Shown here: positions 3,917 to 24,900 of the stretch, piece by piece
How the letters are laid out: each line of letters opens with the position of its first letter
Numbering within the stretch: the first letter of the stretch is position 1
Origin: Synergistaceae bacterium
GTDB lineage: Bacteria > Synergistota > Synergistia > Synergistales > Aminobacteriaceae
DNA length: 64,000 nt
Direction of reading: 5' to 3'
NCBI GenBank assembly: GCA_017470485.1
Contig: JAFUYQ010000012.1
Location: forward strand, 21,535-85,534
Notes under the pieces: generated by a model
The model's input: the letters and a program-made list of their open reading frames with translations, nothing else
What the model was told of the DNA's origin: nothing
The model's database searches: none
Translations under genes and position numbers: made by a program

Positions 3917-6016
3917 ATGGAACAGGAATTTAAGTATTACGCTTTCATCAGCTACAGCCACAAAGACCAGAAAATCGCCAAGCAGCTTCAGAAGCGTCTC
4001 GAACGCTATCATCTTCCGGCCACTATCATTGACGATCACCCTGACCTTCCCAAGAAACTCAGTCCAATCTTCGTTGACGAGTCAGACCTCGTAGCAATAG
4101 ACGGAAGCCTGAGCGATTCACTGAAAGGCTTTCTCAGTGAATCGAATTATCTCATTGTGATTTGTTCGCCCAACAGCGCAAAATCTCCGTACTGCAATGA
4201 CGAAGTGGACTACTTCATCAACACGCTGCACAGAGCGGATCACATTATCCCATTGATTGTCGGAGGATTACCGCACGCCCAAGACCCCTCGCTGGAATGC
4301 TTCACTCCTGCACTTCTGTCGCTTCCCAGAGAGCTTGAGCCGCTGGGAATTGACCTCAAGACGTTCGGAAAGCGTGATTCTTTTCTCAGGGTCATGGCCA
4401 CGATGCTGAGGCTGAATCTTGACTACTTCAAGTCGAGGGAGGACGAGGCGAGAAAAAGAAGGTTGATGATATTTGGGGCAATGGCGGCGGTACTTGCGGT
4501 GATTTTTGGGGTGCTTATCTGGTACAGTGTCGAGACATTTATTCTTATGCGGAGCGGTAGTTCAATTTCACAATTCTATTTTGGCCGAATGTATGAACGA
4601 ATGAAGAATTACGACAAGGCAAAGGAGTGGTATGAAAAGGCCGCCGCTAACGGTGATGCCACTGCTCAATTTAATCTGGGCTACATGTACGATAAAGGTT
4701 TGGGAGTAGAGCAGGACTACGCAAAGGCTGTAGAGTTGTACGAAAAGGCCGCTACTCAAGGTGATGCCGATGCTCAAAATAATCTAGGCATGATGTATGC
4801 ACATGGTCAAGGAATAGAGCAGGATTATGCAAAAGCTATAGAATGGTACGGAAAGGCAGTTGCTCAGGGTAATGCCTCTGCTCAAAATAATCTGGGCTAC
4901 ATGTACGATAAAGGCTTGGGAGTAAAGCAGGATTACGCAAAGGCTAGTGAATGGTACGAAAAGGCCGCCGCTCAGGGTCTTGCTAGTGCTCAAAATAATC
5001 TGGGCTACATGTACGATAAAGGTTTGGGAGTAAAGCAGGATTACGCAAAGGCTAGTGAATGGTACGAAAAGGCCGCCGCTCAGGGTCTTGCTAGTGCTCA
5101 AAATAATCTAGGCATGATGTACCATAACGGTCGTCAGGGAGTAAAGAAGGATTACGCAAAAGCTATAGAGTTGTACGAAAAGGCCACCGCTCAAGGTCAT
5201 GCCACTGCTCAAAATAATCTGGGCTATATGTACCAACATGGTCAAGGAGTAGAACAGGATTACGCAAAAGCTATAGAATGGTACGAAAAGGCAGTTGCTC
5301 AGGGTAATGCCGCTGCTCAAAATAATTTGGGCTGTATGTACGAACATGGTCGTGGAGTAAAGCAGGATTACGCAAAGGCTAGAGAGTTGTACGAAAAGGC
5401 CACCGCTCAAGGTCATGCCACTGCTCAATTTAATCTGGGCGTGATGTATTATAACGGTCAGGGAGTAAAGCAGGATTACGCAAAGGCTAGAGAGTTGTAC
5501 GAAAAGGCCGCTGCTCAAGGCGATGCCGATGCTCAAAATAATTTGGGCTGGATATACAATAAAGGCTTGGGAGTAGAGCAGGACTACGCAAAGGCTGTAA
5601 AGTTGTACGAAAAGGCCGCCGCTCAGGGGCAGGCCAATGCTCAAAATAATCTGGGCAATATGTACGAATACGGTAAGGGAGTAAAAAAGGATTACGCGAA
5701 AGCTATTGAATGGTACGAAAAGGCGGCAGCTCAGGGTCATGCCAAAGCTCAAGATAATTTTGTTGATATTGCCTTTATGTACGTCTGGGGCTGGGGAGTA
5801 GAACAGGATTATGTGAAAGGTAGGGAGCTGTATGAAAAGGCAGCTGCTCAGGGTAATGCTAAGGCTCAAAATGCTCTTGGCTTTATGTACGATAACGGCT
5901 TGGGAGTAGAACAGGACTACGCAAAAGCTATAGAATGGTACGAAAAGGCGGCAGCTCAAGGATTTTCAGACGCTCAAAAACGGCTGGACGAACTGAAAAA
6001 CTCACAGGCCAAATAA
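3917..6016 (+). CDS. TIR domain - single TM - ~13 Sel1-like repeat (SLR) protein
   Basis: GGAGG RBS. N-terminus YYAFISYSHKDQKIAKQL...NYLIVICSPNSAKSPYCNDEVDYF is TIR-like, with the conserved Glu at codon 96 (nt 4202-4204). TM at about aa 183-203, preceded by KRR. Then 13 units of 36 aa of type AQNNLGxMYxxGxGVxQDYAKAxEWYEKAAAQG (Sel1 signature). Confidence 0.85.
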   Translation: MEQEFKYYAFISYSHKDQKIAKQLQKRLERYHLPATIIDDHPDLPKKLSPIFVDESDLVAIDGSLSDSLKGFLSESNYLIVICSPNSAKSPYCNDEVDYFINTLHRADHIIPLIVGGLPHAQDPSLECFTPALLSLPRELEPLGIDLKTFGKRDSFLRVMATMLRLNLDYFKSREDEARKRRLMIFGAMAAVLAVIFGVLIWYSVETFILMRSGSSISQFYFGRMYERMKNYDKAKEWYEKAAANGDATAQFNLGYMYDKGLGVEQDYAKAVELYEKAATQGDADAQNNLGMMYAHGQGIEQDYAKAIEWYGKAVAQGNASAQNNLGYMYDKGLGVKQDYAKASEWYEKAAAQGLASAQNNLGYMYDKGLGVKQDYAKASEWYEKAAAQGLASAQNNLGMMYHNGRQGVKKDYAKAIELYEKATAQGHATAQNNLGYMYQHGQGVEQDYAKAIEWYEKAVAQGNAAAQNNLGCMYEHGRGVKQDYAKARELYEKATAQGHATAQFNLGVMYYNGQGVKQDYAKARELYEKAAAQGDADAQNNLGWIYNKGLGVEQDYAKAVKLYEKAAAQGQANAQNNLGNMYEYGKGVKKDYAKAIEWYEKAAAQGHAKAQDNFVDIAFMYVWGWGVEQDYVKGRELYEKAAAQGNAKAQNALGFMYDNGLGVEQDYAKAIEWYEKAAAQGFSDAQKRLDELKNSQAK
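4880..5095 (+). repeat. Near-perfect tandem duplication, 2 x 108 bp (three SLR-length... one SLR unit each) inside the TIR-SLR gene
   Basis: 4880-4987 and 4988-5095 differ at one position (aaaggCttggg vs aaaggTttggg). Both encode AQNNLGYMYDKGLGVKQDYAKASEWYEKAAAQGLAS. Confidence 0.9.
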
Positions 6017-6038
6017 TTCTGAAGGAGGTTTTATCAAA

Positions 6039-6683
6039 ATGACATCAATGAATCTGACTGTTGACGGTAAATTACTGGACATGCTCACACGCTCAAGCTC
6101 CGCGCTCGGCGTTGAGGTCAGTCAGGTATTGAACGACGCTGTGGGAGCGTACTTCCGCAAACTCGTTACCGACGGAAAAATCCCGATGGACGAAGCCTGC
6201 TCCTCATTGAGCAGTAACACCCCTGAGACTGAATACACCCTCGCTGACTCAAAATCCCTCAGCGACCACAGAAAATACAGCCTCACTCAAAAAGAACGCT
6301 CAGCATTAAGCAAAACTCAGCTCAAAAACGCCGGCAAGGCCGAGAACGGCGACCCTAAAGCCCAGAACGTCATGGGAACTTATTACGAGAGCGGAAACGG
6401 TGTCGAGAAAGATTACATGAAAGCGATTTACTGGTACACTAAATCAGCGGAGCAGGGAAACTCTAACGCTCAGTATCATCTCGCTGTCCTCTATAACAAG
6501 GTCGAGGATAACCCGTTGAAGTCGTATTACTGGTTTGAGGTAGCGAGGCTTTGCGGTTTCAATGTAACGGCGATTCATCAGGATTATATGCTGAGATTGA
6601 CTGAGAGGCTTTCGGAGCGTCAGATAAAACTCGCTCAGGACGAAGCCTTAAAGAAATTCAACGCAATACAGAAAGGAGAATAA
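6039..6683 (+). CDS. Ribbon-helix-helix-like N-terminus fused to Sel1-like repeats
   Basis: AGGAGG RBS. MNLTVDGKLLDMLTRSSSALGVEVSQVLNDAVGAYFRKL fits the beta-alpha-alpha RHH (CopG/Arc) pattern. The C-terminal half has SLR units (AQNVMGTYYESGNGVEKDYMKAIYWYTKSAEQGNSNAQYHLAVLY). Confidence 0.6.
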   Translation: MTSMNLTVDGKLLDMLTRSSSALGVEVSQVLNDAVGAYFRKLVTDGKIPMDEACSSLSSNTPETEYTLADSKSLSDHRKYSLTQKERSALSKTQLKNAGKAENGDPKAQNVMGTYYESGNGVEKDYMKAIYWYTKSAEQGNSNAQYHLAVLYNKVEDNPLKSYYWFEVARLCGFNVTAIHQDYMLRLTERLSERQIKLAQDEALKKFNAIQKGE

Positions 6684-19879: not shown

Positions 19880-20818
19880 TTATTCCCAGAGTTTAGCGAC
19901 TTCATTCACGCAGAAATCGTACTGCTGATTGATGAGCTTTGCAGTGTCCTCAGCGTTCATGTAAAGCGTCGTAATCCCTGCTTTTTCGGCGGCCGCTTTG
20001 TATTCTGGATCGTCCATAGCATTCTTGAAAGCCTCCTCGTAGAACGCTATGACATCAGAGGGAGTGCCTTTCGGGGCAACAATGGCTCTCGCGCTTCCGT
20101 ACCACTTGTTATAGAAGCCGAGTTCACCGAGCGTGGGAGCGTCAGGGAATGAGGGCATACGTTTTTCGGCGAACACTCCGAGAACTTTTACTTCGGTCAG
20201 CATTGAGGCAATGTCGGCCTCTTTAGCGACGCTGAAATCGACTTCGCCCTGCCTGAGTGCTAACAACTGGTCGGCAGTACCGCCGTAAGGTATGGCCATG
20301 TACTGAAAGCCTGCTGACTTTGCGAAGAGTTCAGCACCGATATGGTTACTAGCTTTCATGCCGTTAGTTGAGGCTTTAAGTTTTCCGGGATTTTCCTTAG
20401 CGTAGGCAACGAGTTCCTGAAGCGTGTTGAAGGGGCTTGACTTGCTGACCATGACCATTGAAGTCTCGTTGACGTGGTTGCAGATCGGCACGAAGTCATC
20501 AATCTTGTAATCTCCTAACTGCTCAACGATATTCGAGCATAGTGTCGGGAGATTGACGAAGCCCAATGTGTAACCGTCAGGTCTTGCCTGAGAAAGAGCT
20601 GTCCAGCCTATTGAGCCTGAGCCGCCCTCTAAGTTCTGAATGACGATAGTTCGGCCGATTTTGTCCGAAGCGAATTTTGAGAGGACTCTCGCGGTGTTGT
20701 CAGTTCCTGAGCCGGCCTTGTAAGCGACAATGACGGTAACATTTTTTGACGGTGTCCACGCGAATGCACATGAAGCCGTCAGAGCGACAACGAGTAAAGC
20801 AACCATAAATTTTTTCAT
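19880..20818 (-). CDS. tctC: Tripartite tricarboxylate transporter substrate-binding protein (Bug family)
   Basis: 312 aa with signal peptide. KAGSGTDNTARVL...NLEGGSGSIGW...PYGGTADQLLALRQGEVDF is typical of TctC/Bug receptors. Confidence 0.85.
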   Translation of the reverse strand: MKKFMVALLVVALTASCAFAWTPSKNVTVIVAYKAGSGTDNTARVLSKFASDKIGRTIVIQNLEGGSGSIGWTALSQARPDGYTLGFVNLPTLCSNIVEQLGDYKIDDFVPICNHVNETSMVMVSKSSPFNTLQELVAYAKENPGKLKASTNGMKASNHIGAELFAKSAGFQYMAIPYGGTADQLLALRQGEVDFSVAKEADIASMLTEVKVLGVFAEKRMPSFPDAPTLGELGFYNKWYGSARAIVAPKGTPSDVIAFYEEAFKNAMDDPEYKAAAEKAGITTLYMNAEDTAKLINQQYDFCVNEVAKLWE

Positions 20819-20875
20819 GAAATATCACCTCTTAAATAAAATTATACCCTGTCAACAGCAAAGTCAGAATAGCTA

Positions 20876-20902
20876 TTGACTTTTTCCTATCGTGGATATT
20901 AA
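20876..20902 (+). promoter_or_regulatory. Possible sigma70-like promoter for the viperin-like gene
   Basis: TTGACT (20876-20881) with an AT-rich -10 candidate (gatattaaa) 14-16 nt downstream. The spacing is not ideal. Confidence 0.25.
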
Positions 20903-20942
20903 AATCCGTAAACTGCTTTTATAGAGGAGGAGTCAGAACAAC

Positions 20943-21767
20943 ATGAACAACTTGAAAATAAATTTGCATATTACTGAGCGTTGCAATTTTAAGTGTAAAT
21001 ATTGTTTCGCGTATTTCAATCACCGCGCGGATTTGCCTCTTGAAAGCTGGAAAAGAATTATTGATGACCTAAAAGCCTACGGAGATATTTCAGCGATAAA
21101 TTTCGCGGGCGGCGAGCCGGTTCTATACAAAGGTTTTCCTGAACTAATTGACTACGCTAAAAATTTGGGTTTCAAAGTTTCGATTATCTCAAACGGTTCT
21201 CTTTTGCTTAACGAAAAATTTACCCCGCCCGATGTGTTCTCAAAACTTGATACGCTCGGAATTTCTGTTGACAGCTTCAATGAAAAAATCTTAATTGAGC
21301 TTGGTCGTCGCGACGGAAATTTTCATGTTTTGTCTGAGGAAAAATTTATAAAAATTATTGAGTGCGCGAAATCCGTAAATCCCTCGATAAAAATAAAAAT
21401 CAACACTGTTGTCTCGCAAATTAATAAAAATGAGCGGCTTACTGAAATTGAAAATCGAGTTGAAATAAATCGCTGGAAATTTCTAAATACTAAACTTTTC
21501 GAGACAGAAAATTTTTCCAACAGAAATTTGCTTGTGAGCGACGAGGAATTTCAAAAATTTATTGAGCGAAACCCGCGCGAAAACGGCGAAAGCGTCTTTG
21601 AGAAAAAGATCAGCCGTTCTTATATCATGATTGACAACGTTGGAAATATGCTTGACGACTTCGGGGAAGATTACGAGATTGTCGGCAATATTCTTGAGGA
21701 AAAATTTTCCAACGTGTTCAGCCGTTTTCAACTCGACAAAGAACTTTATCAGAGTCGTTACGTTTGA
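20943..21767 (+). CDS. Prokaryotic viperin homologue (pVip; radical SAM, predicted ddh-nucleotide synthase)
   Basis: CxxxCxxC at C14/C18/C21 (ERCNFKCKYC). It is collinear over the whole length with animal viperin as I recall it: NLHITERCNFKCKYCF / INFAGGEPVL / VSIISNGSLL / LGISVDSFNEK / IKINTVV / INRWKFLNTKLFETEN / SDEEFQKFIERN / SYIMIDNVGNML. Confidence 0.8.
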   Translation: MNNLKINLHITERCNFKCKYCFAYFNHRADLPLESWKRIIDDLKAYGDISAINFAGGEPVLYKGFPELIDYAKNLGFKVSIISNGSLLLNEKFTPPDVFSKLDTLGISVDSFNEKILIELGRRDGNFHVLSEEKFIKIIECAKSVNPSIKIKINTVVSQINKNERLTEIENRVEINRWKFLNTKLFETENFSNRNLLVSDEEFQKFIERNPRENGESVFEKKISRSYIMIDNVGNMLDDFGEDYEIVGNILEEKFSNVFSRFQLDKELYQSRYV

Positions 21768-21784
21768 GATGGAGATGAAAAGTT

Positions 21785-23383
21785 TTGAAATTAACAAATG
21801 AGAATATCGCTGCCGCCGTTGAGGGCATTCAAAAATTTTTTGAAAAATCAAATGTCAGCAAGCAAGATAAGATTAAAATTTGTCTTTTATTTGAGGAAAG
21901 TTTGCTTCGCTGTCAAGAAAATTTCGGGAAAAATCATGAATTTGAGCTTGTGAAAAGAAAATGGTTCGGCACTCCCAAAGTTATGATAAAAATTTGGGGT
22001 GAGCCTTACAATCCTGTAAACGATGATGATGAAAAAAATATTTTTTCAGAAATTGTCATGAGAAATTTTCTGAATTATGAAAGCGCGCAAGTTATTTATC
22101 GTTATGAAAACGGCTATAATGAAATCAGCGGTTTTCCCACGAAACAATCTCAAAAAATAAAAATTCCCGGCGGAAGTCTGACTGTAGCGGTTTTTTGGGC
22201 TATTATTTCGGCTTGGATCGCGCGAAATTTACCTGAAACCACACAAAAAATTATTGTCGCTAATTTTATTACGCCGATTTTAAGTAAATTATTCGGCGCG
22301 ATTGTCGCGGTAACTATTCCGCTGATCTTTATTTCGATTGTGTCTAGCGTTTGCGCGATTGAAAATGTATCCGCTTTGCGTAATTTAACCCTAAAAGTTT
22401 TCAAAAGATTTTTATGGATTTTGCTTTTTGCCGCGATTTCATCAGTTATTGTCAGCGAGATATTTTTCCCCGCGCTTAATTTTGATTTCAGCGGGCAAAT
22501 TGCGTCAAATAATTCCGGCGAAACGCTAAAAATTTTCGATTTGATTTTGTCGATAATTCCGCAAAACATTATTGAGCCGTTCCTGGAAGGAAAAATTTTG
22601 CAAATTGTAATTCTGGCGTTGTTTACGGGAGTTTGCGTAACAATTTTAGGTGAAAGGGTTCAGGATATTAAAAATTTAGTTTTTAGCACGCGGAAAATTG
22701 TTACTCAAATGGTGTCGATAGTTTTCAAAATAATTCCCGCGATAATTTTTTTATGTATCGTGAAAGTAACGCTGCAAAACTCAATGTCAGAAATTCTCAA
22801 TGTATGGAAAGTTGTTTTGGCGCAATATGTTCTTTATATCTTTTTATGTTTAGTAATGCTTTTGAAAAATTATTTTCAGTACGGCGTGAATATTTCAGAT
22901 TTCTTGAAAAAAATTTATCCTGTCGCTTTAATTTCATTTATTACAGGGAGCGCAAGCGCGGTAATGCATAAAAATATTGAAATTTGCGACGAAGTCTTAG
23001 GAATCAAGAAAAATCTTTGTGATTTTTATATACCATTGTCGCACGCGCTTTGTCCCGCCTTAAGAATGGTCAGTTTTATAGTTTATATATTTTTTGTCGC
23101 GAAAAATTCAGGAGAACAAATTACAATTTCGCGACTTTTTATAATAATGTTTTTCTCAATTCAATTCGCTCTCCTCGCTTCAGACGGAGGAGGCGGCGGC
23201 GGATTTGTGGCTATGATGGGGCTTTTGCTTACGCAAGTCGGATTTTCTTTTGACGCGATAGGCGAAATTATGACCGCGAATATTTTTGTCGTAAACTCAG
23301 CGGCGTTTTTTTCATTGATAATCCGCGACTGTGATTTATTGGCGTTTTCGCGAAGCGTATCGCGTTTTAATTATGAAGCATAG
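21785..23383 (+). CDS. Divergent glutamate-transporter-fold (DAACS-like) membrane protein with ~130-aa cytoplasmic N-terminal domain
   Basis: TTG start 17 nt after the pVip stop. TM core has DAACS-like landmarks (AIVAVTIPLIFISIVSSVCAIENVSALRNLTLKVF; ITGSASAVMHKN; FYIPLSHAL; ASDGGGGGGFVAMMGLLL). The NMDGT motif position reads LCPALR. The N-terminal domain (KICLLFEESLLRCQENF...VMIKIWGEPYNPV) is reminiscent of a degenerate SpoIIAB/RsbW-type GHKL module. Confidence 0.55.
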   Translation: MKLTNENIAAAVEGIQKFFEKSNVSKQDKIKICLLFEESLLRCQENFGKNHEFELVKRKWFGTPKVMIKIWGEPYNPVNDDDEKNIFSEIVMRNFLNYESAQVIYRYENGYNEISGFPTKQSQKIKIPGGSLTVAVFWAIISAWIARNLPETTQKIIVANFITPILSKLFGAIVAVTIPLIFISIVSSVCAIENVSALRNLTLKVFKRFLWILLFAAISSVIVSEIFFPALNFDFSGQIASNNSGETLKIFDLILSIIPQNIIEPFLEGKILQIVILALFTGVCVTILGERVQDIKNLVFSTRKIVTQMVSIVFKIIPAIIFLCIVKVTLQNSMSEILNVWKVVLAQYVLYIFLCLVMLLKNYFQYGVNISDFLKKIYPVALISFITGSASAVMHKNIEICDEVLGIKKNLCDFYIPLSHALCPALRMVSFIVYIFFVAKNSGEQITISRLFIIMFFSIQFALLASDGGGGGGFVAMMGLLLTQVGFSFDAIGEIMTANIFVVNSAAFFSLIIRDCDLLAFSRSVSRFNYEA

Positions 23384-23502
23384 CCACGATGAGCATTAGT
23401 CCGTGTCGCTCAGTGATGGCGAGAATGACGCGGACACAAACGAGAAAAAGAATAATACGCAAATATACCCCGTGTACAAAGCACGGGGCATTCCTGCATT
23501 CC

Positions 23503-24900
23503 TTACGAGTTCAAAGGCTCAAGCCTCTTGAACAATTCTTCCTTATCATGGCCGAGTATGAGCGTTAATGAAGCAGCTCTTTTGTCGGGCTGAATGAGTT
23601 TCTCGTTGGTTATTCCGCAGAGTTCAGCAAGTGCCAACGCTCCCTGCCTCACACTTTCGTCCTCGCTCGGAGGGTAAATTATGCTCGATGACCTGTAATC
23701 GTAATGCCTCGCGTTCCCCGTGTAAGGCACTTCGATTCCGATTCGCTGGAAAATCTGCGCCGCTCTTTTGCCGATTCCTTTTTCACCGTCGCCGTTAAGG
23801 ATTCTTATGCTGAGTATCTGATCCCTCAACTGGGCTATCTTCTCGCTGTCAAATCCTGACATGTCCACAGGTTCAGGCGAGAAATCAAGTTCAACCGTTT
23901 CCGACTCCTCAAGCACCGCCGGATCTGTAGGAGGCAGCTTCGCGGCAAGCTGTAATGAAAACGCATTGTTATCCAGAATCCAATAGCTTATACTCTTGCT
24001 TGAGCCTGTACGTCCGGGAGCCATGAACATTTTTATTCTGTCAGCCGGTATGGCGTTAGCGAACTGTACCAGCTTCAACGCCTCCAGCGGTGCTAAATCC
24101 GTATCAATAGCGTCAAACAACTCGTTCACTATCGCAGGGATACGCGGAATTATTGAAGGGGTTTTGAGCTTGCTCATCATTATGTTGATGAAGTTCTGCT
24201 GTCTCCTCACACGCCCTATATCGCCTAATGGGTCATGCCTGAATCTGACGTAGCCCAGCGCGGTTTTACCGTCCATATGTTGCTGTCCTGCAGGAATGTT
24301 GATGAATAATTTTCCTGAGTAGTCGTTGTAATGCAGTCTCTTCTCAACGTATATATCTACTCCGCCGAGAATATCAACTATTCTTGGGAAACTCTTGTAA
24401 TTTATCTTGACGAAGTAATCTATCGGCATTCCCGTTAAATTAACCAGCGTTTCCCTCAGAAGATTAATACCTCCGTAGACGTAAGCATGATTAATTTTGT
24501 CCCAGCTCCGTCCGGGAATATAAACTCTTGAGTCTCTCGGTATTGACGCGATTCGCAGTGCTTTGTTCTCAGCGTCGAAAATTGCAAGCGCAATAGCGTC
24601 AGTCCTTGAGCCTCCCTCAACATTATCAAGCCCAACTATCAATACATTAACTGTGCTTCGGGCAGTGCTTTCGGGCTTCTGGACTTCGCCGACTGCAAGC
24701 TCTGTCGCAACGACTGAGGCACTTTCAGTTGAAGGCTGTGAAATCTGGGGAGGCAGATCAGTTTTTGACTTCACCAGCGAGGCTTTAGGCAATGGAAGCG
24801 GATTGGGGTCATTAAGGACTTCCATAAGGCGCAGGGCTGCACCTCCTATAGCTGAGGCGGCAACCATGAAAATTATTCCTAATATCTTCAGCACTTTCAT
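23503..24900 (-). CDS. LytR-CpsA-Psr (LCP) family protein with C-terminal LytR_C-like domain
   Basis: N-terminal TM. VNVLIVGLDNVEGGSRTDAIALAIFDAENKALRIASIPRDSRVYIPGRSWDKINHAYVYGG is the LCP core. Confidence 0.85.
   Translation of the reverse strand: MKVLKILGIIFMVAASAIGGAALRLMEVLNDPNPLPLPKASLVKSKTDLPPQISQPSTESASVVATELAVGEVQKPESTARSTVNVLIVGLDNVEGGSRTDAIALAIFDAENKALRIASIPRDSRVYIPGRSWDKINHAYVYGGINLLRETLVNLTGMPIDYFVKINYKSFPRIVDILGGVDIYVEKRLHYNDYSGKLFINIPAGQQHMDGKTALGYVRFRHDPLGDIGRVRRQQNFINIMMSKLKTPSIIPRIPAIVNELFDAIDTDLAPLEALKLVQFANAIPADRIKMFMAPGRTGSSKSISYWILDNNAFSLQLAAKLPPTDPAVLEESETVELDFSPEPVDMSGFDSEKIAQLRDQILSIRILNGDGEKGIGKRAAQIFQRIGIEVPYTGNARHYDYRSSSIIYPPSEDESVRQGALALAELCGITNEKLIQPDKRAASLTLILGHDKEELFKRLEPLNS

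Follow-up and report, generated by a model that had tools for sequence, protein, structure and literature searches.

A prokaryotic viperin gene and an adjacent transporter gene in rumen-type Synergistaceae: a traveling pair most likely linked by shared descent and co-transfer

The locus considered here raises the question of why the gene for a prokaryotic viperin, an antiviral radical S-adenosylmethionine (radical-SAM) enzyme, should be followed after 17 nt by the gene for a membrane transporter. The two genes occupy an AT-rich islet at positions 20819 to 23502 of the window, the 64,000-nucleotide stretch of Synergistaceae contig JAFUYQ010000012.1 that was analyzed. A first-pass annotation of this DNA had proposed the transporter as a membrane partner dedicated to the viperin. 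The answer favored here, with a probability of roughly 0.6, is that a stand-alone viperin defense gene was co-transferred with an independently useful transporter. The linkage most likely reflects shared descent and co-transfer and not a demonstrated functional dependence. The islet holds two co-oriented open reading frames (ORFs) on the plus strand, gene 1 (20943-21767, 274 amino acids, ATG start) and gene 2 (21785-23383, 532 amino acids, TTG start), separated by a gap of 17 nt. The TTG start of gene 2 was confirmed by homologues, whose first residues are likewise MKL(T/S)N. The islet and its immediate flanks are laid out as follows.

19880-20818, minus strand: tctC, flanking the islet
20943-21767, plus strand: gene 1, prokaryotic viperin (pVip), a radical-SAM protein of 274 amino acids
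21768-21784, plus strand: intergenic spacer of 17 nt, with GGAG at 21771-21774, 10 nt 5' of the TTG of gene 2
21785-22144, plus strand: gene 2, N-terminal cytoplasmic domain (residues 1-120), with a SpoIIAB/RsbW-like GHKL (Bergerat) fold in the predicted structure
22175-23383, plus strand: gene 2, transporter domain (residues ~131-532), SDF/DAACS family, GltPh fold
23503-24900, minus strand: LCP gene, flanking the islet

Gene 1 is a genuine, intact prokaryotic viperin. It scored 251.6 bits against the NCBIfam model NF038283 ('viperin family antiviral radical SAM protein'; cutoff, 180), a name that NCBI also gives to the identical protein MBR1657160.1, and it stayed below the cutoffs of all other NCBIfam models, including that of MoaA (71.5 bits; cutoff, 284). 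The PADLOC pVip models matched at 6.5e-71 (the best, 'viperins not associated with kinases') and 4.4e-61. The top nine sequences from the PDB were all viperins, with E values of 1e-27 to 3e-24 and alignments spanning residue 4 or 5 to residues 243-270, and were followed by the next family at 1.5e-13 and by MoaA at 2.6e-5. The alignment covered residues 5-270 of 274 with 9dfu and residues 4-245 with mouse RSAD2 (5vsl/6q2p), and these data agree with the original view of gene 1 as a viperin collinear with RSAD2. The motifs CNFKCKYC (C14/C18/C21, CxxxCxxC) and INFAGGEP (G56-G57-E58-P59) are present, and among 28 relatives the three cysteines and GGEP are invariant. The viperin C-terminal extension is also present, with its RWK and SY(I/L)(I/M)(I/L)D segments conserved in the same 28 relatives. 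The ratio of nonsynonymous to synonymous substitution rates (dN/dS) of the gene, 0.08-0.18, indicates purifying selection.

It could be asked whether gene 1 is instead a MoaA-like or other radical-SAM enzyme that acts in a metabolic pathway with the transporter. The similarity of its N-terminal half to MoaA, NrdG, and SPASM maturases would permit this, but that similarity is generic, and the reading is extremely improbable and effectively refuted. The score against the viperin model is above its cutoff and those against MoaA and the other models are far below theirs, the C-terminal extension aligns with solved viperins, and, as a control, a true MoaA (from L028) reached just 63 bits on the viperin model. 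A position outside the viperins, for example with MoaA, had been named beforehand as the result that would count against the viperin assignment, and it was not what the scores returned.

Viperins convert nucleoside triphosphates (NTPs) into 3'-deoxy-3',4'-didehydro-NTPs (ddhNTPs), which are RNA chain terminators; most prokaryotic viperins have a promiscuous pocket, lone viperin genes guard E. coli against T7, and a kinase neighbor is found for 12% of bacterial viperins (Shomar et al., bioRxiv 10.1101/2023.09.13.557418). By homology, the gene 1 product, with a [4Fe-4S] cluster and S-adenosylmethionine, would carry out the same conversion, and the resulting ddhNTPs would terminate transcription by phage RNA polymerases. 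No kinase gene was found among the neighbors of the window viperin (within three genes). The first-pass annotation was correct on this absence and less so in taking a kinase for a typical neighbor, because with a kinase beside only 12% of bacterial viperins a missing kinase is unremarkable. In this respect the locus differs from the vertebrate RSAD2-CMPK2 and bacterial viperin-kinase pairs, which it resembles in linking a viperin to a second gene, since the neighbor here is a membrane transporter and not a nucleotide kinase. Relative to described pVips (NF038283; PADLOC 'viperins not associated with kinases'; single-gene anti-phage systems), gene 1 is alike in its full-length architecture, CxxxCxxC, GGEP, and C-terminal extension. 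It differs in its setting, a solitary islet amid housekeeping genes with a transporter following, whereas its relatives lie in defense islands. The window viperin is not in such an island, being flanked by tctCBA on one side and LCP-nadD-obg on the other; an island location is typical of the family but not obligatory.

For gene 2, the proposed glutamate-transporter (DAACS) fold was also upheld. The protein matched Pfam PF00375 (SDF) at 9.6e-49 (166.8 bits; gathering cutoff, 27.9), and its NCBI name is 'cation:dicarboxylase symporter family transporter.' An AlphaFold2 model with a predicted local distance difference test (pLDDT) score of 74.8 was superposed on GltPh by Foldseek with an E value of 3e-13 and a target-normalized template-modeling score (TM-score) of up to 0.80. 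A gene 2 profile matched the PDB at 9e-45, and the serine-rich hairpin HP1 and the glycine-rich hairpin HP2 were kept. Gene 2 thus shares fold and hairpins with GltPh/GltTk, DctA, and GltP (PF00375) but has an extra cytoplasmic N-terminal domain (N-domain) of ~120 residues and lacks NMDGT. In the profile alignment with solved transporters, this sodium-site motif of transmembrane helix 7 (TM7) was not found, the residues opposite it being variable in the family and LCPAL in the window protein. The profile alignments ended before TM8, and the HP2-TM8 segment searched alone had no PDB match. A substrate call from TM8 residues (the equivalents of GltPh D394/R397/N401) was accordingly given up, as the alignment did not reach them. 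The protein also scored well under the cutoffs of the named DctA and GltP models (63 versus 513 bits). Because NMDGT is replaced, TM8 is unalignable, and the DctA and GltP scores are below cutoff, canonical sodium-coupled aspartate transport appears unlikely for gene 2. The gene is nonetheless under purifying selection (dN/dS of 0.23-0.30), retains all family-invariant residues, and is without sign of altered function; it had no match among the PADLOC models. A run of six glycines (GGAGGAGGCGGCGGCGGA, 23186-23203) was noted at the predicted tip of HP2, where the family consensus is GNGG; this part of the extracellular gate was probably expanded by slippage.

The composition of the islet sets it apart from its surroundings. 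Its G+C content is 36.7%, compared with a mean of 48.3% for the rest of the window (standard deviation, 1.7%; minimum, 44.1%; sliding 2.56-kb windows), which makes it the lowest stretch in the window (z = -6.7). The G+C content at third codon positions is 0.40 in gene 1 and 0.355 in gene 2 and is 0.45-0.57 in six neighbors (tctA/B/C, LCP, nadD, and obg). The Obg, LCP, and TctC proteins encoded around the islet either match proteins of Synergistaceae MAGs identically or cluster with them. The AT-rich block reported at first reading is therefore real by windowed and third-position G+C, and the 60-nt counts from which it was noticed were exact (19/60 at 21301, 17/60 at 22801, and 32/60 at 20401 in tctC), as were the 17-nt gap and the 532-residue length of gene 2.

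The same pair was found in four lineages, namely the window with its 98%-identical relatives L035-L037, L001, L039, and L137. DNA homology of the window to L001 and L039 is confined to 20928 or 20943 through 23351, with no relation between the flanking sequences. The cassette occupies four different sites, tctC|LCP, DtxR-type repressor|ABC ATPase, fmt-def|ctsR-clpC, and short ORF|mutL, and is AT-richer than its flanks at all four. Synonymous divergence (dS) is alike for the two genes in each comparison (0.52 versus 0.45 and 0.79 versus 0.65). Since four lineages carry it at four housekeeping sites with matching synonymous divergence, it is concluded that the pair travels as a unit. Horizontal acquisition, which had been suggested from composition, is now supported both by foreign composition and by the presence of one cassette at four unrelated chromosomal sites.

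The carrier was sought in several ways. No match to a mobility family was obtained among the flanking proteins scanned (three sites) or the genes called in L039, and no dedicated defense family was detected among the flanking proteins scanned, the called genes around the L039 cassette being housekeeping genes. Direct or inverted repeats flanking the islet did not rise above chance, and no tRNA or other RNA family was found near it. No gene 2 relative was present in IMG/VR, plasmids yielded generic SDF proteins alone (24-28%, without the N-domain), and the phage collection contained no viperin relative. A phage, plasmid, or viral contig was rejected as the carrier on these grounds, as no close relative of either gene was found there.

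A compact pair that moves in this manner might be a true two-gene defense system in which the GHKL-like-DAACS protein is the dedicated partner of the viperin. Such a partner could export or compartmentalize a toxic ddh-nucleoside or nucleotide, bring in a precursor, or use its cytoplasmic domain to detect infection and gate the membrane. This proposal, which is considered unlikely here, is favored by the operon-like layout with its 17-nt gap, by the minimal cassette at four unrelated sites with matching dS, and by the position of gene 2 in the slot that is held beside sister viperins by defense genes (IIGP GTPases and STAND). The loss of NMDGT and the unalignable TM8 are also in its favor, as they leave room for a substrate other than an amino acid. 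It is disfavored by the retention in gene 2 of all family-invariant residues, by the lack of a PADLOC match for gene 2, and by the range of known substrates of the DAACS fold. These comprise amino acids and dicarboxylates, and no nucleoside or nucleotide carrier with this fold is known.

Data bearing on a dedicated partner were obtained from surveys of the two gene families. The gene-2 family was surveyed at 34 genomic loci, nearly all from rumen Selenomonadaceae metagenome-assembled genomes (MAGs). A viperin adjoined the gene-2 relative in one of them, L001 (Synergistaceae), which carries the nearest relative (81% identity), and in none of the 33 others; the homologues of 64% and 60% identity had no viperin neighbor. 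L028, the single other locus with a radical-SAM neighbor, was rejected as a second independent pairing, as that gene is moaA within a molybdenum-cofactor operon. The viperin survey comprised 80 metagenomic loci (52 with at least 1 kb downstream and 57 with at least 1 kb upstream) and the 10 closest full-length relatives, and no gene-2 relative was found near the viperin in any of the 80 or the 10 (0/90). In a neighbor-joining tree, the transporter-paired viperins formed one shallow clade, with the IIGP-partnered P0122 as sister, and the surrounding clades had IIGP or STAND neighbors. The homology of L042 to the window covered the viperin gene alone, with 82% nucleotide identity up to the stop codon, after which a GTPase gene follows. 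From the single shallow clade, its IIGP- and STAND-partnered sisters, and the viperin-only homology of L042, it was deduced that the pairing arose once, within a defense-island viperin lineage.

This single origin, with no other case in 33 family loci or 90 viperin loci, argues against a dedicated partner. The first-pass annotation had named two outcomes that would speak against its own proposal, namely a lack of enrichment beside viperins and confinement to this genome. The former was found (1/34 gene-2 loci and 0/90 other viperin loci), and the latter was not, the pairing being shared by the members of a single shallow clade. The statement that the pairing was undescribed held, in that no link between a viperin and an SDF/DAACS transporter was found in the literature searched. 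The pairing is thus undescribed and probably incidental.

The fate of the two genes in individual lineages provided a further line of evidence. In L001, the viperin is broken after about residue 61 by an insert of ~185 nt, which splits the CxxxCxxC part from a remnant of 207 amino acids. In this region (L001:5124-5317, in a RGIG3217-type Synergistaceae), an imperfect direct repeat of 17 nt flanks the insert (ACTTGTAGAAGTAGCAG at 5138, ACTTGTAGAAGTGGAAG at 5276). The truncation is no assembly artifact, because the 207-residue form, without CxxxCxxC, recurs in at least nine NCBI MAGs, in each of which the next accession is the transporter gene. The transporter beside the truncated viperin has its full 529 amino acids in eight of the nine and is cut by the contig end in the ninth (153 amino acids, partial). 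Within this population, the mean amino-acid difference was 1.4% for the remnant versus 0.94% for the transporter, with 8 of 207 and 15 of 535 columns variable, respectively. Between intact lineages, the viperin changes at about half the rate of the transporter (dN of 0.046 versus 0.102), and the reversal in the decayed population had a binomial p of 0.015. These data fit a dead viperin under relaxed constraint beside a transporter that is still constrained. In L039, the viperin has a frameshift near residue 225. L137 presents the opposite case, with an open viperin ORF of 260 amino acids beside a transporter split into 326 and 195 amino acids. The viperin and the transporter are not kept or lost together, and either decays alone. 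The persistence of a full-length and comparatively constrained transporter in eight of the nine MAGs with a dead viperin (the ninth being contig-cut) is a further point against a dedicated partner.

The same decay could suggest that selection acts on the transporter as cargo, with the viperin as a decaying passenger that supplies an upstream position and translation signals, the islet then being a nutrient-uptake acquisition. This would account for the nine MAGs in which a transporter gene, full length in eight, adjoins a broken viperin and for the frameshifted viperin of L039, and it is consistent with the expansion of the gene-2 family in rumen bacteria, as expected of nutrient transporters. 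It is nevertheless judged quite improbable, since the viperin is intact in the window lineage, including the 98%-identical relatives, since its dN/dS (0.08-0.18) is below that of the transporter, and since L137 has a broken transporter instead.

The preferred reading, a stand-alone viperin co-transferred with an independently useful transporter, can be stated as a sequence of events. A single joining would have brought a defense-island viperin, ancestrally followed by IIGP-type GTPases or STAND, beside a transporter gene, and the joined genes would then have spread together as a compact cassette. The islet would represent the arrival of this two-gene operon by horizontal transfer in an uncultured rumen-type Synergistaceae bacterium. 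Gene 2 would be co-transcribed with gene 1 and would most likely be an independent solute transporter, probably not of the canonical sodium-coupled aspartate type.

Several observations weigh against co-transfer as the whole explanation. The pair has held together over roughly 0.5-0.8 synonymous substitutions per site and a minimum of four relocations, with zero other passengers, and co-movement without passengers is the behavior of true multi-gene defense systems. Purifying selection acts on both genes in the window lineage, and the spacer (21768-21784), when scanned, was without a promoter-like or terminator-like site. The frameshifts of L039 and L137 are each known from one metagenomic contig and might reflect misassembly. 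Finally, with its binding motifs altered, gene 2 might carry an unconventional cargo. A more specific form of partnership would be a new two-component antiviral module of a viperin and a GHKL-like-DAACS protein, in which the membrane protein handles the product or precursor or couples infection sensing to transport; ddh-nucleoside export, for example, could limit self-toxicity or warn neighboring cells. Such a module is rated as rather unlikely.

The signals around the two genes were examined for how the pair might be expressed and where the islet ends.

20876-20905, plus strand: candidate sigma-70-type operon promoter (TTGACT, 18 nt, TAAAAT), a consensus match only
20924-20932, plus strand: ribosome-binding site GAGGAGGAG of gene 1, 10 nt 5' of the ATG, as read from the sequence
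23349-23374, plus strand: terminator-like hairpin and T-run within the last ten codons of gene 2, a consensus match only
23468-23488: GC-rich hairpin (CCCCGTG, 7-nt loop, CACGGGG) in the interval separating gene 2 from the convergent LCP gene

The candidate promoter is the best promoter-like match of the region (10/12 positions). DNA in common with the other cassette copies begins at 20928 or 20943, and the promoter lies outside it. A weaker match (9/12 positions) was seen at 21852-21879, just within gene 2. At the other end, homology with the other copies stops at 23351, that is, at the terminator-like hairpin, and the C-terminal ~10 residues of gene 2 vary among the copies. The GC-rich hairpin, read on the minus strand, lies 15 nt past the LCP stop codon and ahead of an A/T-rich run. 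It most likely serves as the LCP terminator, and it marks the islet border on the host side.

Gene 2 begins with a distinct domain of ~120 residues outside the membrane part, which had been overlooked in the earlier annotation and which is strongly conserved across the gene-2 family. For the AlphaFold2 model of this domain (pLDDT, 83), the top Foldseek matches were to SpoIIAB (1tid/1th8; TM-score, 0.62-0.66), followed by RsbW and histidine-kinase CA domains. Attempts to identify the domain at the sequence level were all negative, and SpoIIAB was obtained from the fold comparison alone. No Pfam match was found (no HATPase even at an E value of 10), the domain profile did not match any PDB sequence, and hhalign against SpoIIAB (with a SpoIIAB sequence that may be inexact) gave a probability of 0.1%, with the N-box position opposite the conserved Arg42. 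The N-box Asn, DxGxG, and G2 box were not evident in the domain, and the family consensus lacks DxGxG. Residues 1-120 share the order of secondary structures, in the predicted fold, with the SpoIIAB/RsbW anti-sigma-factor kinases but show no detectable sequence similarity to them and are fused to a transporter rather than free-standing. The model is consistent with a cytoplasmic regulatory domain of the pseudo-GHKL type, probably blind to ATP.

A profile search with this domain returned 716 representative clusters (50% identity), and in full-length proteins of 515-550 amino acids the domain was always N-terminal. The combination of a GHKL-like domain and a DAACS domain constitutes a large unnamed family. 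In P0364 and P0433 (371 and 380 amino acids), the GHKL-like domain is at residues ~233-348 and not at the N terminus of a transporter, which suggests another architecture for the domain. The family has housekeeping settings, beside argG/argH, beside alaS, or in tandem arrays. The arrays of rumen Selenomonadaceae hold up to five diverged paralogues that are 37-44% identical to the window protein, and one run of five tandem paralogues lies between mnmA and oxidoreductase/purH. Loci of the family are as follows.

L015:1222-9164 (equal to L052:3621-11584): gene-2-family locus
L014:1460-4642: gene-2-family locus
L030:6001-9153: gene-2-family locus

Downstream of the closest relatives of the window viperin (62-79% identity) lie IIGP/IRG-type GTPases or a Pkinase-NB-ARC-TPR STAND protein of 1388 amino acids. 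A recurrent rumen viperin module was observed at L042-L051, L061, and L074 (e.g., L046:150-3432, L047:1537-6499, L043:957-7574, and L049:3323-11920). A divergently transcribed gene for a protein of ~440 amino acids without a Pfam or PADLOC match lies upstream of the viperin at 11 loci (46-100% identity), and one or two IIGP/IRG-type GTPases (PF05049) lie within ~1 kb after it at 8 loci. The 1388-residue STAND protein and an nSTAND3 helicase are often next. In L047, a second radical-SAM gene (5546-6499, 317 amino acids) was found four genes past the viperin of an IIGP-type island. The IIGP-type GTPases were considered as Eleos members and rejected, the LeoA/LeoBC matches being confined to the P-loop. 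A link between a bacterial viperin and an interferon-inducible-type GTPase was not found in the literature searched, and the viperin/IIGP/STAND module may be an undescribed multi-gene viperin island.

If the transporter were a true partner of the viperin, this would be the first transporter-dependent viperin and would provide the first function for a large uncharacterized transporter family. If, as preferred, the two genes were co-transferred, the locus adds one more viperin to a family that is already catalogued and annotated by NCBI. By-products of the analysis, namely the GHKL-like-DAACS family and the rumen module of ~440-residue protein, viperin, IIGP, and STAND kinase, may outrank the islet itself in interest. 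The main value of the islet would be as a worked example in which a defense gene exits its island, gains an unrelated neighbor, and then spreads in mini-cassette form; a joint function is therefore not proven by tight operon linkage and co-mobility alone.

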